Positions 1 through 38,871 of a DNA stretch of 45,899 bases are shown here, one piece after another. Position 1 is the first letter of the stretch. Every line of letters begins with the position of its first letter. Source of the DNA: a virus (lineage: Duplodnaviria; Heunggongvirae; Uroviricota; Caudoviricetes); the IMG/VR virus record IMGVR_UViG_2711768067_000020, one strand, 5' to 3'. A program made the translations under genes and the position numbers. A model generated the notes under the pieces. The model made no database searches and had not been told where the DNA came from. It saw only the letters and a list, made by a program, of their open reading frames with translations.

Positions 1-177
1 AATAAATTTATAAGCGCAGTCCTGAGCAGCCGGATAATGTTCCAGGAATTGCCAGTGAAATTTTGCGCGGGCGCGACATTCATCACCGGCTTCAATGGCA
101 GTGGCTACAGCGACTGCACCTTCTTCCTTTATTGCCTGTTCGTCCGGAATGGCGGCGCAAATAAAGACTTTACTCAT
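1..177 (-). CDS. Early-left operon protein, 3' end cut by window edge (Qin YdfE-like position)
   Basis: ATG at 177 on - strand preceded by GAGGT SD; N-terminus MSKVFICAAIPDEQAIKEEG; frame stays open to window start; lies downstream of ydfD/dicB on the same strand. Confidence 0.45.
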   Translation of the reverse strand, partial: MSKVFICAAIPDEQAIKEEGAVAVATAIEAGDECRARAKFHWQFLEHYPAAQDCAYKFI

Positions 178-269
178 TTTGTTTTACCTCATTACAGATT
201 TAAGGGTGAACAAATCCCTGCCATTGCTGGCATATAAGAATGAAACCGGATATTTATTACGGAACTGTT

Positions 270-461
270 TTAAAGACCTGCCGGGATTTCGTTATTATCC
301 TGGTGAATAACTTTATCGACCGGGTAACAGTTACCGGGAATTTTCTGTTCGGTTGCTGCAGTCACACACTCCTGCATTGTCCTGTGAACACTGACTGCAA
401 TATCAACTGGCTCTCCGGAAACAAGAAAAACTGTCAGAACAAGTGCAAATGCTGTATTCAT
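270..461 (-). CDS. ydfD: YdfD-like small lysis protein
   Basis: Internal ATG of track ORF 270..515 gives 63 aa MNTAFALVLTVFLVSGEPVD... with hydrophobic N-terminus; ATG overlaps dicB stop (ATGA); same size and position as Qin YdfD. Confidence 0.65.
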   Translation of the reverse strand: MNTAFALVLTVFLVSGEPVDIAVSVHRTMQECVTAATEQKIPGNCYPVDKVIHQDNNEIPAGL

Positions 462-646
462 TGCCAGCATCCTTTTTGTATCGGACGTAAACGGGCCAGC
501 ATTGAAAGAATGCATATTTTATTTAATAACTCCCGTTCGTGTTTTCTCTTGTTAATGGCATCTTCAGTAAATACAGGGTTACTGATAGTGACACCAATTT
601 CAAAACAACCTTCAGACGTATTAACGTTTGGTAATAACGTTTCCAT
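458..646 (-). CDS. dicB: DicB-like cell division inhibitor
   Basis: Internal ATG of track ORF 458..751 gives 62 aa METLLPNVNTSEGCFEIGVTISNPVFTEDAINKRKHERELLNKICILSMLARL..., matching DicB as remembered; sits downstream of DicF as in Qin. Confidence 0.8.
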   Translation of the reverse strand: METLLPNVNTSEGCFEIGVTISNPVFTEDAINKRKHERELLNKICILSMLARLRPIQKGCWQ

Positions 647-820
647 TATCGCGTCCTCAACAATGAATTTTGTGATGCGATGCCTGGTGCCTCCAGGTGA
701 CGTTAACCAGTTAACAATTAACGCCGGATACAGAGAATCCACCCATAACACTGTTTTTGGTTTTAACTGTTCCGCGTGCGCTCAGCCGCATTCACCACAT
801 CACAAAATTCACTTTAAAAA

Positions 821-873
821 GGGCGGCAGAGCAGTCACGGAGTAAAACTGATACCGCCAAACGTCACCAGAAA
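821..873 (-). ncRNA. dicF: DicF small RNA (ftsZ-repressing sRNA) with T-run terminator
   Basis: Reverse complement reads UUUCUGGUGACGUUUGGCGGUAUCAGUUUUACUCCGUGACUGCUCUGCCGCCC followed by UUUUU, identical to the 53-nt DicF sequence as I recall it; coordinates +/-2. Confidence 0.8.
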
Positions 874-1214
874 ATTGATAACAGAGGGCGTTGCAGCGGG
901 GTTGTCACTTAAGCGTATGGTCAACCTGACAACCCGGTGTCCTCAACGGGGGAAGGAATAACCCCGCCATACTTACCGCCGCGCCATTTCGCGGATTGCC
1001 ACAACCGGAAGCGCACGGTCGACGAAAATTTAACGACAGGCTATCTATGAACCAGCTACCTCGCCGTGCGCTTTCGCGTTATGGTCTGACTTTTCAGGGA
1101 AATATCCTTTCAGTAAACTGTCAATGCCGGATGCTCACCCGTGTCCGGCGCACGCACTCCACCTCACCCGTGGAGAACTCCTTAATTACTAACCTTAGCT
1201 TTGTTGATTAGCTA

Positions 1215-1433
1215 CTAACGCGGGTATGTAATCATTCTGGCAATGCTTAATGCCGCTGCTTTTTCCAGATTGGTGATATCCTGCTCCAGAGCGGACAGAT
1301 TTTCAGCCTGCTTAGCTCTGGCTTCATTGGCCCATTTCAGATCCTGCGCTGCATTAATTTTCTGGTGCATCCACTCATAAAGTTCATCATCGGTATAGTC
1401 TGGCGCGATGATGACGGGTTCTCGTTTCTGCAT
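1215..1433 (-). CDS. ydfC: YdfC-like early-left operon protein
   Basis: 72-aa ORF (track), same size and position as Qin YdfC upstream of DicF. Confidence 0.55.
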   Translation of the reverse strand: MQKREPVIIAPDYTDDELYEWMHQKINAAQDLKWANEARAKQAENLSALEQDITNLEKAAALSIARMITYPR

Positions 1434-1462
1434 ACTGATTCCTCGCGGTGCTGTTTCGCTTA

Positions 1463-1591
1463 TCAGCCGTTAGATTTTGCCGAGCTGGAAAGCGCCTGTT
1501 TAAACTCACTGAAGCTGAGAGCTTCTTCGCCTTCGGCAAGGCCTTCGAAGTATTCTTCGTAAGCCTTTTCCATGATTGTGTCGAAATCCAT
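1463..1591 (-). CDS. ydfB: YdfB-like small protein
   Basis: 42-aa ORF read by eye on - strand: MDFDTIMEKAYEEYFEGLAEGEEALSFSEFKQALSSSAKSNG; below track size cutoff; coordinates approximate. Confidence 0.5.
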   Translation of the reverse strand: MDFDTIMEKAYEEYFEGLAEGEEALSFSEFKQALSSSAKSNG

Positions 1592-1592
1592 A

Positions 1593-1748
1593 TCACTCAC
1601 CTGAGTTTCTTTCCAGCCAGCGACGGGCACCATTTTCGGTTTTAAACGTTTTGCTTTTGGTATACGTCATCGCGGTGAATGTGCCGTCCTGGTTGGGAAA
1701 CACGCCGTACACCAGAGATTCGTTGTTGCCAAGACCGATAGTATCCAT
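1593..1748 (-). CDS. ydfA: YdfA-like small protein
   Basis: Internal ATG of track ORF 1593..1802 gives 51 aa MDTIGLGNNESLVYGVFPNQDGTFTAMTYTKSKTFKTENGARRWLERNSGE; first gene downstream of the repressor promoter. Confidence 0.55.
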   Translation of the reverse strand: MDTIGLGNNESLVYGVFPNQDGTFTAMTYTKSKTFKTENGARRWLERNSGE

Positions 1749-1949
1749 GTTGACCTCATTTCCCCTTAACGCCGGAGTAGCGGAACTGTTTGCTGAGAAC
1801 ACCGTGCGGTGTCTTGATGAGTGAAATTTAGAATAACCTAAGGCATATGGTCAAGATTTTTATGTAGAAAAACCTAAGTTTTTTGGTGTAAAAAACACAA
1901 GTGTTTGAAAGTTTGTGCTTTTTATTACAGGGTGTGGAGAAAAAAGGGG

Positions 1950-2357
1950 TTATTTGTTTGCGCTTCTTTTGCGAGCTTTAAGTAGTTCTTCAAAAAGTTT
2001 GTTGAAATTTTCAACTCGAGCACGCATCTCTGACAACAGGGCCTTTTGCTCTGAGTCAGGCAGTGCGTCGAACAGTTGAAGTAACTCTTTTTGATCTTCT
2101 GTCAGAATGGCTGGCTGATTATTCGGGATCGGTTCGCCTGGTTGTTTATCTTCATCCCCAAAAAGAAGCCAAGTCGGTGAGCACTGAAGCGCTTGGCTCA
2201 GTGCGAATAATCTTTTCCCCGCCGGCTGTGTTTCATCTCTTTCCCATTGAGAAATTGTTACGTGAGCCACTTTGACCAGCTTACCTAATGCGGCCTGAGA
2301 CAGTTTTAATTTTTTACGCCTATGTAAGAGGCGAGCACCGAAGGTTTCGTTTTTCAT
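1950..2357 (-). CDS. dicA: DicA-like HTH (XRE-family) prophage repressor
   Basis: 135 aa; N-terminal helix-turn-helix LSQAALGKLVKVAHVTISQWERDETQP; divergently oriented to a Cro-like gene; no S24 peptidase domain, as in DicA. Confidence 0.85.
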   Translation of the reverse strand: MKNETFGARLLHRRKKLKLSQAALGKLVKVAHVTISQWERDETQPAGKRLFALSQALQCSPTWLLFGDEDKQPGEPIPNNQPAILTEDQKELLQLFDALPDSEQKALLSEMRARVENFNKLFEELLKARKRSANK

Positions 2358-2433
2358 ATTAGGGAATTCTAATTTTTCTTGACTTAGGTTTCTCTACGAT
2401 CTAGTTTCCTTAGGAAAATCTAAGGAGCTCGAT
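2358..2433. promoter_or_regulatory. Divergent immunity promoter/operator region between dicA and dicC
   Basis: Palindrome CCTTAGG-AAAAT-CTAAGG overlapping the dicC SD; TTGACT...TACGAT promoter-like hexamers; related CCTAAGG half-sites around 1838-1890 upstream of the ydfA operon. Confidence 0.5.
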
Positions 2434-2661
2434 ATGTTGAAAATTGATGCTATAGCGTTTTTTGGCAGCAAAACAAAGCTTGCCAATGCCGCAGGAGTTA
2501 GGTTGGCAAGCATTGCTGCATGGGGGGAACTGGTTCCTGAAGGTCGCGCGATGCGCCTGCAAGAGGCATCCGGCGGGGAACTTCAGTACGACCCCAAAGT
2601 TTATGACGAATATCGTAAGGCAAAGCGGGCGGGGCGGTTGAACAATGAAAATCACCCCTGA
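2434..2661 (+). CDS. dicC: DicC-like Cro-type regulator
   Basis: 75 aa MLKIDAIAFFGSKTKLANAAGVRLASIAAWGELVPEGRAMRLQEASGGELQYDPKVYDEYRK; TAAGGAG SD; matches DicC as remembered. Confidence 0.8.
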   Translation: MLKIDAIAFFGSKTKLANAAGVRLASIAAWGELVPEGRAMRLQEASGGELQYDPKVYDEYRKAKRAGRLNNENHP

Positions 2662-3196
2662 ACAGGTTTGTGAGGCTCTGGATGCCTGGGTATGCCGACC
2701 AGGAATGACACAGGAGCAGGCGACGATATTAATCACGGAAGCATTCTGGGCTCTGAAAGAACGCCCGAACATCGATGTTCAACGCGTCACGTTTGATGAT
2801 GGCGCGGTTGATCAACGGGCGCTGGGCGTTAACCGGGTGAAGATATTCGAACGCTGGAAATCTATCGACACCAGGGATAAGCGGGAAAAATTCACGGCGC
2901 TGATTCCGGCAATTATGGCGGCTATCCGGATCAGTGATTTCAGGTTGTATCGTGAAATTACTGACGGAAAAAGCATTACGTACATGATCGCCGGGTTAAA
3001 CAAAGAATATGGCGATGTGGTGGAGTCAGGGCTACTTTTTGCGGATCCAGCTGTTGTGGAACGTGAGACTGACGAACTTATAGAAAAAGCTATTGCTTTC
3101 AAGCGTGCGTATCGTCAGCAATACCAACATTACTTTGCAGATAAACAAATATCTGTCTGGGGTTCGTATGAGTATCGATGCGCTACGATGGGCTAA
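2645..3196 (+). CDS. Phage early protein of unknown function (occupies cII-like position)
   Basis: 183-aa ORF whose ATG overlaps the dicC stop; no motif I can name. Confidence 0.5.
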   Translation: MKITPEQVCEALDAWVCRPGMTQEQATILITEAFWALKERPNIDVQRVTFDDGAVDQRALGVNRVKIFERWKSIDTRDKREKFTALIPAIMAAIRISDFRLYREITDGKSITYMIAGLNKEYGDVVESGLLFADPAVVERETDELIEKAIAFKRAYRQQYQHYFADKQISVWGSYEYRCATMG

Positions 3197-6300: not shown

Positions 6301-7059
6301 ATGAGGAACATAATGGCAGGTTTTTTAATATTCCTGTCTTCTGCTGCTTATGCTGATATCAATCTGTATGGTCCTGGTGGCCCGCATACAGCCTTGCTTG
6401 ATGCAGCCAAACTTTATGCCGAAAAAACAGGTATTATAGTGAACGTTCATTACGGCCCACAGAACAAATGGAATGAAGATGCCAAAAAAAATGCAGATAT
6501 CTTGTTTGGCGCATCAGAACAATCTGCTCTGGCTATCATTCGGGACCATAAAGACAGCTTCAGTGAAAAAGATATTCAGCCTCTTTATCTGCGAAAAAGT
6601 ATTTTACTGGTAAAGAAAGGTAATCCTAAAAATATCCGGAGTATTGACGACCTGACCAGACCCGGGATTGGCGTAATTGTTAATGATGGTGGTGGTACCA
6701 GTAATACATCAGGCACTGGCGTCTGGGAAGATATTGCCGGACGTAAAGGGAATATAGAAACTGTCGCCGCAATCCGAAAAAATATTATTTTATATGCGCC
6801 CAATAGCGGAACTGCACGTAAGGCTCTTGAGAATCAGCCTGAAGCAGATGTCTGGATAACCTGGGCTGACTGGGCAGCCAGTAATCCAGAAATTGGTGAT
6901 GTCGTGGAAATAGCGCCAGACTACGTGATATGGCGTGATATGAACATTACAGTACGTCAGGATGCAAATGATGAAACCCGTCGATTTGCAGAATGGCTAC
7001 AAACCGATGAAGCGGCGCCTGCATTCAAAAAATATGGCTGGACCAGGAAAGGCACTTGA
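6301..7059 (+). CDS. paa: Paa/AcfC-like secreted solute-binding-fold protein (adherence-associated family)
   Basis: 252 aa; signal peptide MRNIMAGFLIFLSSAAYA; mature N-terminus ADINLYGPGGPH... typical of the AcfC/PEB3/Paa family; AGGAG SD; AT-rich flanks. Confidence 0.75.
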   Translation: MRNIMAGFLIFLSSAAYADINLYGPGGPHTALLDAAKLYAEKTGIIVNVHYGPQNKWNEDAKKNADILFGASEQSALAIIRDHKDSFSEKDIQPLYLRKSILLVKKGNPKNIRSIDDLTRPGIGVIVNDGGGTSNTSGTGVWEDIAGRKGNIETVAAIRKNIILYAPNSGTARKALENQPEADVWITWADWAASNPEIGDVVEIAPDYVIWRDMNITVRQDANDETRRFAEWLQTDEAAPAFKKYGWTRKGT

Positions 7060-7397
7060 CATCCTCCACGTCCTTCAGAACGTGGATTCTTTTTCCGGAT
7101 GCCGCGCCAGCGGCATGTAGGGGCAGCTCACAAAACGGAAAAAATTGTACGCTAAGCCTCGCCAGGTGAACTGAATTCATTCCGATATGGGAATTCCCAT
7201 ATCGGACGAAAACGGCTTGCTGTAACGGCAGAGTTAAGTAGAATTGCTGCGGGTGCTTGAGGCTATCTGCCTCGGGCATGAACACCAACGGCAGATAGAT
7301 AAAAGCCCCACCCGACTATAAATCGAAGTGAGGCCCCTATATGCTCGTCACATATAGATTGCCTCTTACGGACCGAAAGGTCAAGGAGAAGCAGGCT

Positions 7398-7553
7398 ATG
7401 AAGCAGCAAAAGGCGATGTTAATCGCCCTGATCGTCATCTGTTTAACCGTCATAGTGACGGCACTGGTAACGAGGAAAGACCTCTGCGAGGTACGAATCC
7501 GAACCGGCCAGACGGAGGTCGCTGTCTTCACAGCTTACGAACCTGAGGAGTAA
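7398..7553 (+). CDS. hok: Hok/Gef-family type I toxin (track ORF 7341..7553 is the overlapping mok-like leader frame)
   Basis: 51 aa MKQQKAMLIALIVICLTVIVTALVTRKDLCEVRIRTGQTEVAVFTAYEPEE; one TM helix plus conserved C-terminal region; upstream inverted repeat TCCGATATGGG-AATTC-CCATATCGGA at 7180-7215 consistent with Sok/leader structure. Confidence 0.85.
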   Translation: MKQQKAMLIALIVICLTVIVTALVTRKDLCEVRIRTGQTEVAVFTAYEPEE

Positions 7554-7623: not shown

Positions 7624-7646
7624 CCCGCTTCGGCGGGTTTATTTTA
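7624..7646 (+). terminator. Rho-independent terminator / hok mRNA 3' stem-loop
   Basis: CCCGCTTCGGCGGG hairpin followed by TTTATTTT. Confidence 0.5.
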
Positions 7647-8011
7647 TCTGTAAATATTTTTATAAAAATAATGCCCACACACAGCATAAAACAAAAAGTA
7701 TCACAGATAAAAAAGGAGCGTAATGTGCAGATTTGTTGTTTTCCATATTTACTCACTTTAACATAATCAAAATTGATATGGTTGTTGTTTTGGTGGTTTC
7801 AAACGAGATGTTATGGTGATCTGGTAAAATTGCATAACATTAAAATTTAATTTATCTAATCGCTTTTAATAATAAGCGTTGTGTTTATCCCAACAATCTG
7901 TTGTTTGACTTTTATTCCATTAATGTAGGGGCTTTACACTGGAACCAGTTTATTTATACTTTATACGCCAGCCTGAACAACTGGCACCTGCTGCGCCAGC
8001 AGAGACAACCG

Positions 8012-37941: not shown

Positions 37942-38871
37942 ATGGCAGTAAAGATTTCAGGTGTGCTGAAAGACGGCACAGGAAAACCAATACAGAACTG
38001 CACCATTCAACTGAAAGCCAGACGTAACAGCACCACGGTGGTGGTGAACACGGTGGCCTCTGAAAATCCGGATGAGGCAGGGCGTTACAGCATGGACGTC
38101 GAGTATGGTCAGTACAGCGTCACTCTGTTGGTGGAGGGATTCCCTCCATCACATGCCGGGACCATCACCGTGTATGAAGATTCTCAACCGGGGACGCTGA
38201 ATGATTTTCTCGGTGCCATGTCGGAGGATGACGTCCGGCCGGAGGCAATGCGTCGTTTTGAACTGATGGTGGAAGAAGCGGCGCGTCACGCAGAGGAGGC
38301 GAAGAAGAATGCCGGAGAGGCGGAGACATCAGCGAGGAATGCCGGCATATCAGCCAGTCAGGCAGAAGAGAGCGCTGCAAATGCTGACACTTCAGCAGGG
38401 GAGGCATCGGAGTCAGCCCGGCAGGCGGCAGAAAGTGCAGCCGCTGCAAAGCAGTCAGAGGAGGCGTCCTCGTCCTCGGCCTCTGCGGCCGCTCAAAAAG
38501 CCAGTGAGTCATCACAAAGTGCAGCAGATGCTGAATTGTCAAGAAAGACGGCAGAAAGTGCAGCCGGTAATGCAGCCAGGGATGCAACGACCGCAACAGA
38601 AAAAGCCCGGGAGTCAGCAGAAAGCGCACAGTCAGCGGAACAAAGCAGGATAGCGGCGGAAGAGGCCGTAAACCGAATCCCCACCGTGGTGGGACCTCCC
38701 GGGCCAAAGGGGGAACAGGGGCCCGCGGGTCCTCAGGGGCCGAAGGGTGATAAGGGAGAGCGCGGTGACACCGGCCCTGTCGGGGCAACCGGCGAACGGG
38801 GACCGGCAGGTGATGCTGGTCCGGCAGGCCCGCAGGGGCCGAAAGGAGGGGCCGTCTGTGCGCGTGAATGA
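37942..38871 (+). pseudogene. stf: Side tail fibre Stf copy 1, truncated within the collagen-like repeats
   Basis: [17 protein letters not shown]-terminus as lambda Stf; about 906 bp near-identical to stf copy 2, then diverges at about 38848 into an 8-codon tail and stop. Confidence 0.7.

Follow-up and report, generated by a model that had tools for sequence, protein, structure and literature searches.

The DNA analyzed here, IMG/VR record IMGVR_UViG_2711768067_000020 (Duplodnaviria; Heunggongvirae; Uroviricota; Caudoviricetes), is 45,899 nt long and is referred to below as the window. Close to its left end lies an operon that we read, with high confidence, as the well-characterized dicBF form of the early-left (PL-equivalent) operon of a lambdoid prophage. 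Six elements, ydfA, ydfB, ydfC, the small RNA (sRNA) DicF, dicB, and ydfD, were found on the minus strand in the order known from the cryptic prophage Qin of Escherichia coli K-12, and all frames were open (Table 1). The original prediction, which stated no strand, had placed the complete set at positions 270 to 1748; these limits are exactly the stop codon of ydfD and the start codon of ydfA.

Operon genes and their identity to Qin

The reverse complement of window positions 200 to 1960 was aligned with Qin of E. coli K-12 DH1. Over 1.55 kb, from about 65 nt 5' of ydfA to a point beyond ydfD, the operon body was 93–100% identical at the nucleotide level, and the frames, said earlier to be apparently intact, contained no internal stop codons or frameshifts in any of the genes, dicB included. 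The first three genes were nearly unchanged: ydfA was 97.4% identical in nucleotides (50/51 amino acids, aa), ydfB 99.2% (42/42 aa), and ydfC 98.6% (71/72 aa). The gene for the division inhibitor, dicB, was 93.1% identical (55/62 aa), and its product also passed the NCBIfam model NF049927 (132.7 bits, cutoff 100). This dicB allele was the commonest one in a sample of IMG/VR, with 32 copies against 20. The last gene, ydfD, overlaps the stop of dicB by 4 nt and was 97.4% identical to K-12 (59/63 aa). The Prokaryotic Genome Annotation Pipeline labels this allele a DUF1482 protein and nothing more; from its identity to the K-12 lysis protein, it would be expected to have lysis activity. A terminator-like hairpin downstream of ydfD fits the end of the K-12 transcript after this gene. 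Two plus-strand open reading frames (ORFs) antisense to the operon (240–845, 201 aa; 996–1211, 71 aa) were rejected as spurious, the characterized genes being on the minus strand.

DicF and processing of the transcript

DicF was identical to the known 53-nt sRNA of K-12 at 53 of 53 positions (100%), as had been predicted, and its flanks were identical too. The Rfam model RF00039 matched 821–872, inside the interval 800–900 proposed earlier for the comparison, with 76.7 bits against a gathering score of 48 (E 2.6e-15). The hairpin of the intrinsic terminator had a predicted folding energy of -15.9 kcal/mol and was followed by UUUUU.

Both spacers that flank DicF, between ydfC and DicF and between DicF and dicB, were 98–99% identical to those of K-12 (98.2% for the ydfC–DicF spacer). 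In K-12, RNase III cleavage gives a 190-nt DicF species its 5' end, and RNase E makes the 53-nt species (PMC10448788). The 5' end predicted for the 190-nt form (1005–1010) maps into a long, irregular hairpin (999–1084) of the ydfC–DicF spacer, within its 3' arm; this hairpin is probably the RNase III substrate that yields the precursor. The 3' end of K-12 DicF is set by the intrinsic terminator or by an RNase III cut in read-through RNA, the latter giving a 72-nt form (PMC9438474). The predicted 3' end of the 72-nt form (802) maps into the stem of about 20 bp that closes the DicF–dicB spacer. Most economically, this stem would be the site 3' of DicF at which RNase III has long been known to cut.

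Promoter, operators, and repressor

The regulatory parts of the operon (promoter, operators, and repressor) lie outside 270–1748, at 1825–2661. Homology to Qin ends at position 1812 of the window, about 65 nt 5' of the start codon of ydfA, and the next 137 nt were only 38% identical. A sigma-70-like promoter was predicted in this segment, at the position of dicBp in K-12 and unrelated to it in sequence. Five operator-like repeats of the form CTTAGG-N4-TCTA were found. The repeat at 1829–1842 overlaps the spacer and the -10 element of the predicted promoter, that at 1865–1878 lies upstream of its -35 element, and the other three lie between the repressor and cro-like genes. With at most one mismatch allowed, the pattern had 5 matches in the 45.9-kb window, against a chance expectation of 1.0, and 5/5 were within the two regulatory regions. 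It superseded another pattern tried, TTAGG-N6-CTAA, whose spacing was wrong and which gave no relevant match. K-12 has TTAG-N6-CTAA sites at the equivalent places; its sites are of the TGTTAG..CTAACA type, and only the core TTAG-N6-CTAA is common to them and to the repeats of the window.

The protein encoded upstream of the operon belongs to the DicA family. It was 61% identical to DicA of K-12 and 96.3% identical to the repressor of the PPompW prophages of Shiga toxin-producing E. coli (STEC). Among Pfam domains it had only a helix-turn-helix (HTH_3), without the S24 peptidase domain for self-cleavage. The adjacent DicC/Cro-like protein was 84% identical to K-12 DicC. As far as sequence can tell, then, a DicA/DicC-family switch adjoins the operon, with the architecture of Qin kept. 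The immunity type differs from that of Qin, given an unrelated promoter–operator region (38% identity) and a repressor with just 61% identity to DicA. The label "Qin-type" given to the operon earlier thus holds for its body and fails for its promoter, operators, and repressor. The accompanying proposal of repressor control agrees with the DicA-family repressor upstream and with the operator-like repeats over the predicted promoter.

A YdaT-family protein is encoded on the plus strand after the cro-like gene, overlapping its end (2645–3196). This position presumably corresponds to that reported for the CII equivalent of CP-933P-type switches.

A structured leader RNA related to STnc100

The 157-nt leader in the DicF–dicB spacer (660–816, minus strand) is a covariation-supported structured RNA homologous to the sRNA STnc100. 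Its minimum free energy (MFE) was -65 kcal/mol (z -5.5), and 0/200 shuffles folded as well. The Rfam model of STnc100 (RF02076) matched it with 34.6 bits, which is below the gathering score of 47 (E 3e-5 in 2.7 kb). Covariation was assessed in 23 non-redundant sequences, whose consensus comprised 31 pairs in five helices. Standard pairs were formed in 97.9% of the alignment cells, against 28–40% when partners were slid by 1–3 columns, and 12 pairs had changed on both sides, against 1–4 after such sliding; by either measure, 0/500 shuffles did as well.

A full STnc100 copy (11713–11885, plus strand; Rfam 101.5 bits) is present in the window downstream of Q and two tRNA genes and upstream of a NanS-type esterase gene. 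A covariance model made from leaders only found this copy (11728–11865) at 50 bits, the best background being 9 bits, and found both kinds of copy, leader and STnc100, in phage mEp460_ev081. The window therefore carries two members of one RNA family, an early-left leader and a late-region STnc100, and mEp460_ev081 does likewise. The two kinds have in common the closing helix, the GGUGAAU motif, and an invariant CACCnGGAGGCACCnGG hairpin, all found in STnc100/PasD sRNAs. The dicB leader differs in having no 3' terminator of its own and in being fused to the downstream ORF, whereas STnc100 is located downstream of Q and tRNAs, near the esterase gene.

Homologs of the leader (69–99% identity) occur unannotated in many phages, directly upstream of dicB, of kil/kilR (Rac-SA53, Stx phage 75/02, and 666R9), or of terB (P7). 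A scan of IMG/VR with a leader-specific sequence pattern gave 107 copies with full flanks. In 52 of these the gene that followed was dicB, its start codon being placed mostly at +151 relative to the motif; 17 preceded kil (mostly at +157), 3 terB, and 35 other ORFs. DicF was upstream of only 52/107 copies.

Rather than a passive spacer, the leader may, tentatively, be a portable cis-acting cassette of the STnc100/PasD family, which temperate phages would place at a fixed distance before toxic genes for host takeover, such as dicB, kil, and terB (start codon 151–157 nt from GGUGAAU). Its closing stem of about 20 bp would then be the RNase III site that splits DicF from the dicB mRNA and would set DicB translation or stability. 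We consider this model possible but more doubtful than not. If it is true, the free-standing STnc100/PasD "sRNAs" and the leaders have a common origin. No description of the dicB leader was found in the searchable, incomplete literature, and a preprint that links STnc100 with PasD mentions neither dicF nor dicB. Homology to put-like antiterminator RNAs was unsupported: phage HK022, whose put RNAs define the put antitermination mechanism, gave no match to the leader covariance model (E ≤ 0.1).

The surrounding prophage and its relation to strain DCE7

Window positions 1–2700 were 100% identical to the genome of E. coli DCE7 (NZ_CP090611.1), where the operon is followed by an intact exonuclease gene (823 aa) and by genes for a DUF4224 protein, an integrase, and tRNA-Ser. 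The window itself starts inside the exonuclease gene, and int, xis, and att lie beyond it. Colinearity of the whole window with DCE7 was ruled out. The match covered only 92% of the first 25 kb, and the window departed from DCE7 at 7641–7990 and 9696–12030. Its right end consists of an nleH-cif-espJ block that in other genomes lies about 0.5 kb from ybhB-bioA. The window is thus a different mosaic from the DCE7 prophage, and the whole window occurred in no record of the genome collection searched.

The lytic gene set was full length, with ORF lengths equal to those of annotated homologs. PHROGs assignments included O-like and P-like replication proteins, RusA, and Q. The window also encodes a holin, a lysozyme, Rz, Rz1, a run of genes from terminase to J, and one complete tail fibre. 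Tail-fibre genes are in tandem: the first copy (37942–38847) covers only residues 1–302 of the 437-aa fibre, and the second (39210–40520) is complete and 99.3% identical to that of strain 14EC001.

The DCE7 prophage (NZ_CP090611.1, 1889200–1936500) has its integrase end at tRNA-Ser (serU)/mtfA and its other end at a truncated ydfJ, which is the Qin junction of K-12. Its ends share no att repeat of at least 11 nt. These two loci should be separated by about 0.4 Mb of K-12-equivalent chromosome, and the record is only 4.42 Mb long. For the DCE7 record, this points to two prophages having recombined or to a collapsed assembly. It does not concern the window, and the mismatch of attL at serU and attR at ydfJ' does not carry over to it.

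Inducibility and the missing Rem

The prophage had been assumed to be inducible. This is unproven, because the repressor is without an S24 domain, Rem is missing, the LexA box is at chance level, and int, xis, and att are outside the window. Full derepression in K-12 has been shown only via the antirepressor Rem, encoded between hokD and ydfU (PMC10448788). No Rem homolog was found in any frame of the window by tblastn with K-12 Rem and the Rem-like protein of DCE7 as queries (best E 0.4). The DCE7 homolog is 72% identical to K-12 Rem and occupies the same slot as in K-12. Where this otherwise 99.9%-identical prophage has rem, the window carries a 350-nt AT-rich segment (7641–7990) with no annotated gene or convincing ORF, and 743 complete E. 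coli genomes contain this segment without annotation. Two tiny ORFs preceded by Shine-Dalgarno-like sequences were noticed in it by eye, MCRFVVFHIYSL (~7724) and MVVVLVVSNEMLW (~7779), as candidates only. A hok/sok type I toxin-antitoxin locus was found at 7251–7553, in the same relative position as hokD in Qin; sok matched Rfam with 103.9 bits at 7251–7400, and a hokD-like ORF ends at 7553.

The single LexA-box match lay inside the O-like replication gene and was at the level of chance, being equaled in 41/100 shuffles. No antirepressor family was detected among the 10 early ORFs scanned, the rest of the ORFs not having been scanned. Neither a RecA-cleavable repressor nor an antirepressor was thus found as an induction route in what was searched. 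Rem-independent expression has been described for K-12, both in roughly 1% of cells and during stationary phase, and antirepressors can act in trans from other prophages, with a precedent in Gifsy (PMC10448788). Bistable or stress-driven derepression independent of Rem, or an antirepressor acting in trans, is possible.

Proposed mechanism

By analogy with K-12, inactivation of the repressor would allow transcription from the promoter at 1825–1854 into a polycistronic RNA. RNase III would cut this RNA at the 999–1084 hairpin and RNase E would trim it to the 53-nt DicF, the 3' end of which would be formed by the terminator or by an RNase III cut within the stem that follows. DicF would block translation of ftsZ and manX. 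Read-through transcripts would supply DicB, redirecting MinC to the septum and inhibiting ManYZ, and YdfD, causing lysis by inhibiting IspG. The earlier proposal of two FtsZ-directed inhibitors plus a lysis protein would accordingly be met by DicF, DicB, and YdfD, as expected from the identity of the alleles to those of K-12 and from the literature. Since the repressor has no cleavage domain and Rem has no homolog, derepression here would need Rem-independent bistable switching or stress, or an antirepressor in trans.

Several points weigh against reading the locus as a working dicBF operon. Rem, through which alone full induction has been demonstrated in K-12, has no homolog in the window. 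The promoter and the operators are consensus or repeat matches and thus predicted sites only. DicB differs from K-12 at 7/62 residues, 5 of them within the last 16, and YdfD at 4/63 residues, and the activity of both is assumed. Further, this reading does not account for how transcription in a working phage would get through the DicF terminator and the post-ydfD hairpin to exo, xis, and int.

Alternative explanations

The best supported alternative is that the window comes from a fully functional temperate phage, in which dicBF would simply serve for host takeover in the manner of Kil and be expressed briefly during each lytic cycle. We regard it as a serious possibility, falling somewhat short of even. 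Several phages deposited as isolates carry the module (mEp460_ev081, Tritos, HannyBb, PhiR42_1, and the vB_Eco series), the genes for replication, Q, holin, lysozyme, Rz, terminase to J, and tail fibre are complete in the window, and the operon holds a position analogous to that of lambda kil in the PL operon. The location of int, xis, and att beyond the window and the missing Rem argue in the other direction, as does the truncation of one tail-fibre copy, though a full copy follows it. A functional phage with dicBF was also implied by the original prediction. The module is indeed complete here, but the implied consequence is not new: the functional phage mEp460_ev081, published in 2023, carries dicB, dicF, dicAC, and rem (PMC10448788).

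Alternatively, the operon may be intact but locked: its repressor would not be cleavable, a cognate antirepressor would be lacking, and full induction of the prophage would be impossible. Like cryptic Qin, it would then function only as a host-domesticated module with low-level or stochastic production of DicF and DicB, serving for instance in the ManYZ-dependent exclusion of phages. The lack of Rem in every frame, with the departure from DCE7 falling exactly at rem, would fit such a state, as would the HTH-only repressor, the lone LexA match, and the expression without Rem seen in a small fraction of K-12 cells and in stationary phase. The full length of all lytic modules in the window speaks against long-term decay, however, and the occurrence of the rem-less segment in 743 genomes points to a common, probably viable variant. 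Antirepressors can also act in trans, as for Gifsy, and other antirepressor types were screened in the early-region ORFs only. On balance we judge this alternative unlikely.

That the frames are decayed or resemble genes by chance is next to impossible: the small ORF size (42–72 aa) is the only point in its favor, against 93–100% nucleotide identity to characterized K-12 genes over 1.55 kb, scores of curated models far above their cutoffs, and the absence of stops and frameshifts.

Comparison with known systems

The reading as the dicBF form of the early-left operon agrees most closely with the Qin operon of K-12 (ydfABC-dicF-dicB-ydfDE under DicA/DicC), which has the same genes and order, an identical DicF, and processing hairpins that are 98% identical. 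The Qin exonuclease is truncated by IS2, whereas that of the window is not, as judged from the identical DCE7 region. Qin is a 20-kb remnant and encodes Rem; the prophage around the present operon is full length and does not. The parts of the system are well described. Many E. coli strains have dicBF loci, and O157 has multiple copies of them (PMC5069750). DicB acts through MinC on FtsZ and also on ManYZ (PMC6832061), YdfD is a lysis protein that inhibits IspG (PMC8835842), and the DicA/DicC/Rem switch has been described together with repression by DicA and bistability (PMC10448788).

Phage mEp460_ev081 (LR597641) has the same architecture as the window from int through Q (int-xis-exo-ydfD-dicB-(DicF)-repressor-cro-ydaT-O-P...hok-(rem)-DUF968-RusA-Q), a dicB leader 99% identical to that of the window, and an STnc100-like copy downstream of Q. 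It differs in its repressor, only 53% identical to that of the window, in encoding Rem, and in having no ydfABC-like annotation in that form. The PPompW prophages of STEC (LC5678xx series), in which dicA, dicC, ydfC, and dicB are annotated, have the same immunity type as the window, and 77% of the 2.7-kb region of the window was matched at 95.8% identity. They are integrated at ompW, match in 4 pieces with insertions, and carry other cargo. The Rac-type kil/kilR module (Rac-SA53 and Stx phage 75/02) occupies the same early-left position, upstream of a RecE-type exonuclease, with the same structured leader about 20 nt before the start codon of the division inhibitor. The inhibitor there, Kil (73 aa), is unrelated to DicB, and no DicF was upstream in 15/17 cases.

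Other features of the window

The layout at 9725–13873 is typical of Stx (Shiga toxin) phages, without stx: Q and two tRNA genes are followed by about 1.1 kb without toxin genes and then by the esterase gene. Virulence cargo was found at 6301–7059, 17017–17331, and 40900–45899, comprising a paa adhesin, a PerC-family regulator, and a type III effector block. The terminal effector block was 100% identical to blocks in many genomes of atypical enteropathogenic E. coli (aEPEC) and STEC, in which the lambda att region, ybhB-bioA, is about 0.5 kb away.

Table 1. Features of the window discussed in the text, with positions and the evidence for each.
Feature	Position	Strand	Evidence or remark
Exonuclease gene, 5' end (ydfE equivalent)	1–175	minus	ORF start at 175; continues beyond the window
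Terminator-like hairpin 3' of ydfD	219–232	minus	Consensus scan only
ydfD (DUF1482; lysis protein in K-12)	270–461	minus	63 aa; Pfam PF07358, 88 bits
dicB (MinC-dependent division inhibitor)	458–646	minus	62 aa; Pfam PF05358, 127.4 bits (cutoff 27)
Structured leader RNA, DicF–dicB spacer	660–816	minus	157 nt; fold, covariation, sub-threshold STnc100 match
DicF sRNA, 53-nt form	821–873	minus	Rfam RF00039; U-tract of intrinsic terminator at 816–820
Long irregular hairpin, ydfC–DicF spacer	999–1084	minus	MFE fold of 812–1214 (minus)
ydfC	1215–1433	minus	72 aa
ydfB	1463–1591	minus	42 aa; WP_000344964.1 in both annotated records
ydfA (DUF1391), first gene of the operon	1593–1748	minus	51-aa ORF; Pfam PF07151, 94.8 bits
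Predicted dicBp-like promoter, sigma-70-like	1825–1854	minus	Promoter scan (TTGACC, 18 nt, TAAATT)
Two operator-like repeats, CTTAGG-N4-TCTA	1829–1842, 1865–1878	minus	Repeat match
DicA-family repressor	1950–2357	minus	135 aa; NCBIfam PRK09706, 236 bits (cutoff 101)
Three operator-like repeats between repressor and cro-like genes	2358–2371, 2383–2396, 2409–2422	plus	Repeat match
DicC/Cro-like regulator	2434–2661	plus	NCBIfam PRK09744, 167.9 bits (cutoff 130); Pfam P22_Cro
Q	9725–10546		Stx-phage-like late region
tRNA-Met(CAT)	10690–10765		
tRNA-Arg(TCT)	10866–10942		
SASA/NanS-p esterase	12023–13873		616 aa
nleH	40900–41781		Terminal effector block
cif	42005–42853		Terminal effector block, along with a DUF1076/NleG-like gene
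espJ	45246–45899	minus	Terminal effector block

Implications

The operon is an intact copy of the well-studied dicBF system and is as such already known; most E. coli genomes have dicBF loci, and parts of the 2.7-kb region matched 4766/5426 complete genomes, often in several copies. The differences from known systems are mainly the repressor type and the absence of Rem, and only the Rem-minus state and the STnc100-related leader deserve follow-up. The window offers a clean example of the early-left operon of Qin in a state that has not decayed, the exonuclease downstream being full length and the set of lytic genes complete. As a natural Rem-minus variant beside the near-identical Rem-plus prophage of DCE7, it also provides a ready comparison for the induction of DicA-type switches. 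Finally, the STnc100-related spacer between DicF and dicB could account for the processing by RNase III that has long been known 3' of DicF, and it could link a family of prophage sRNAs to the mRNA leaders of division inhibitors.

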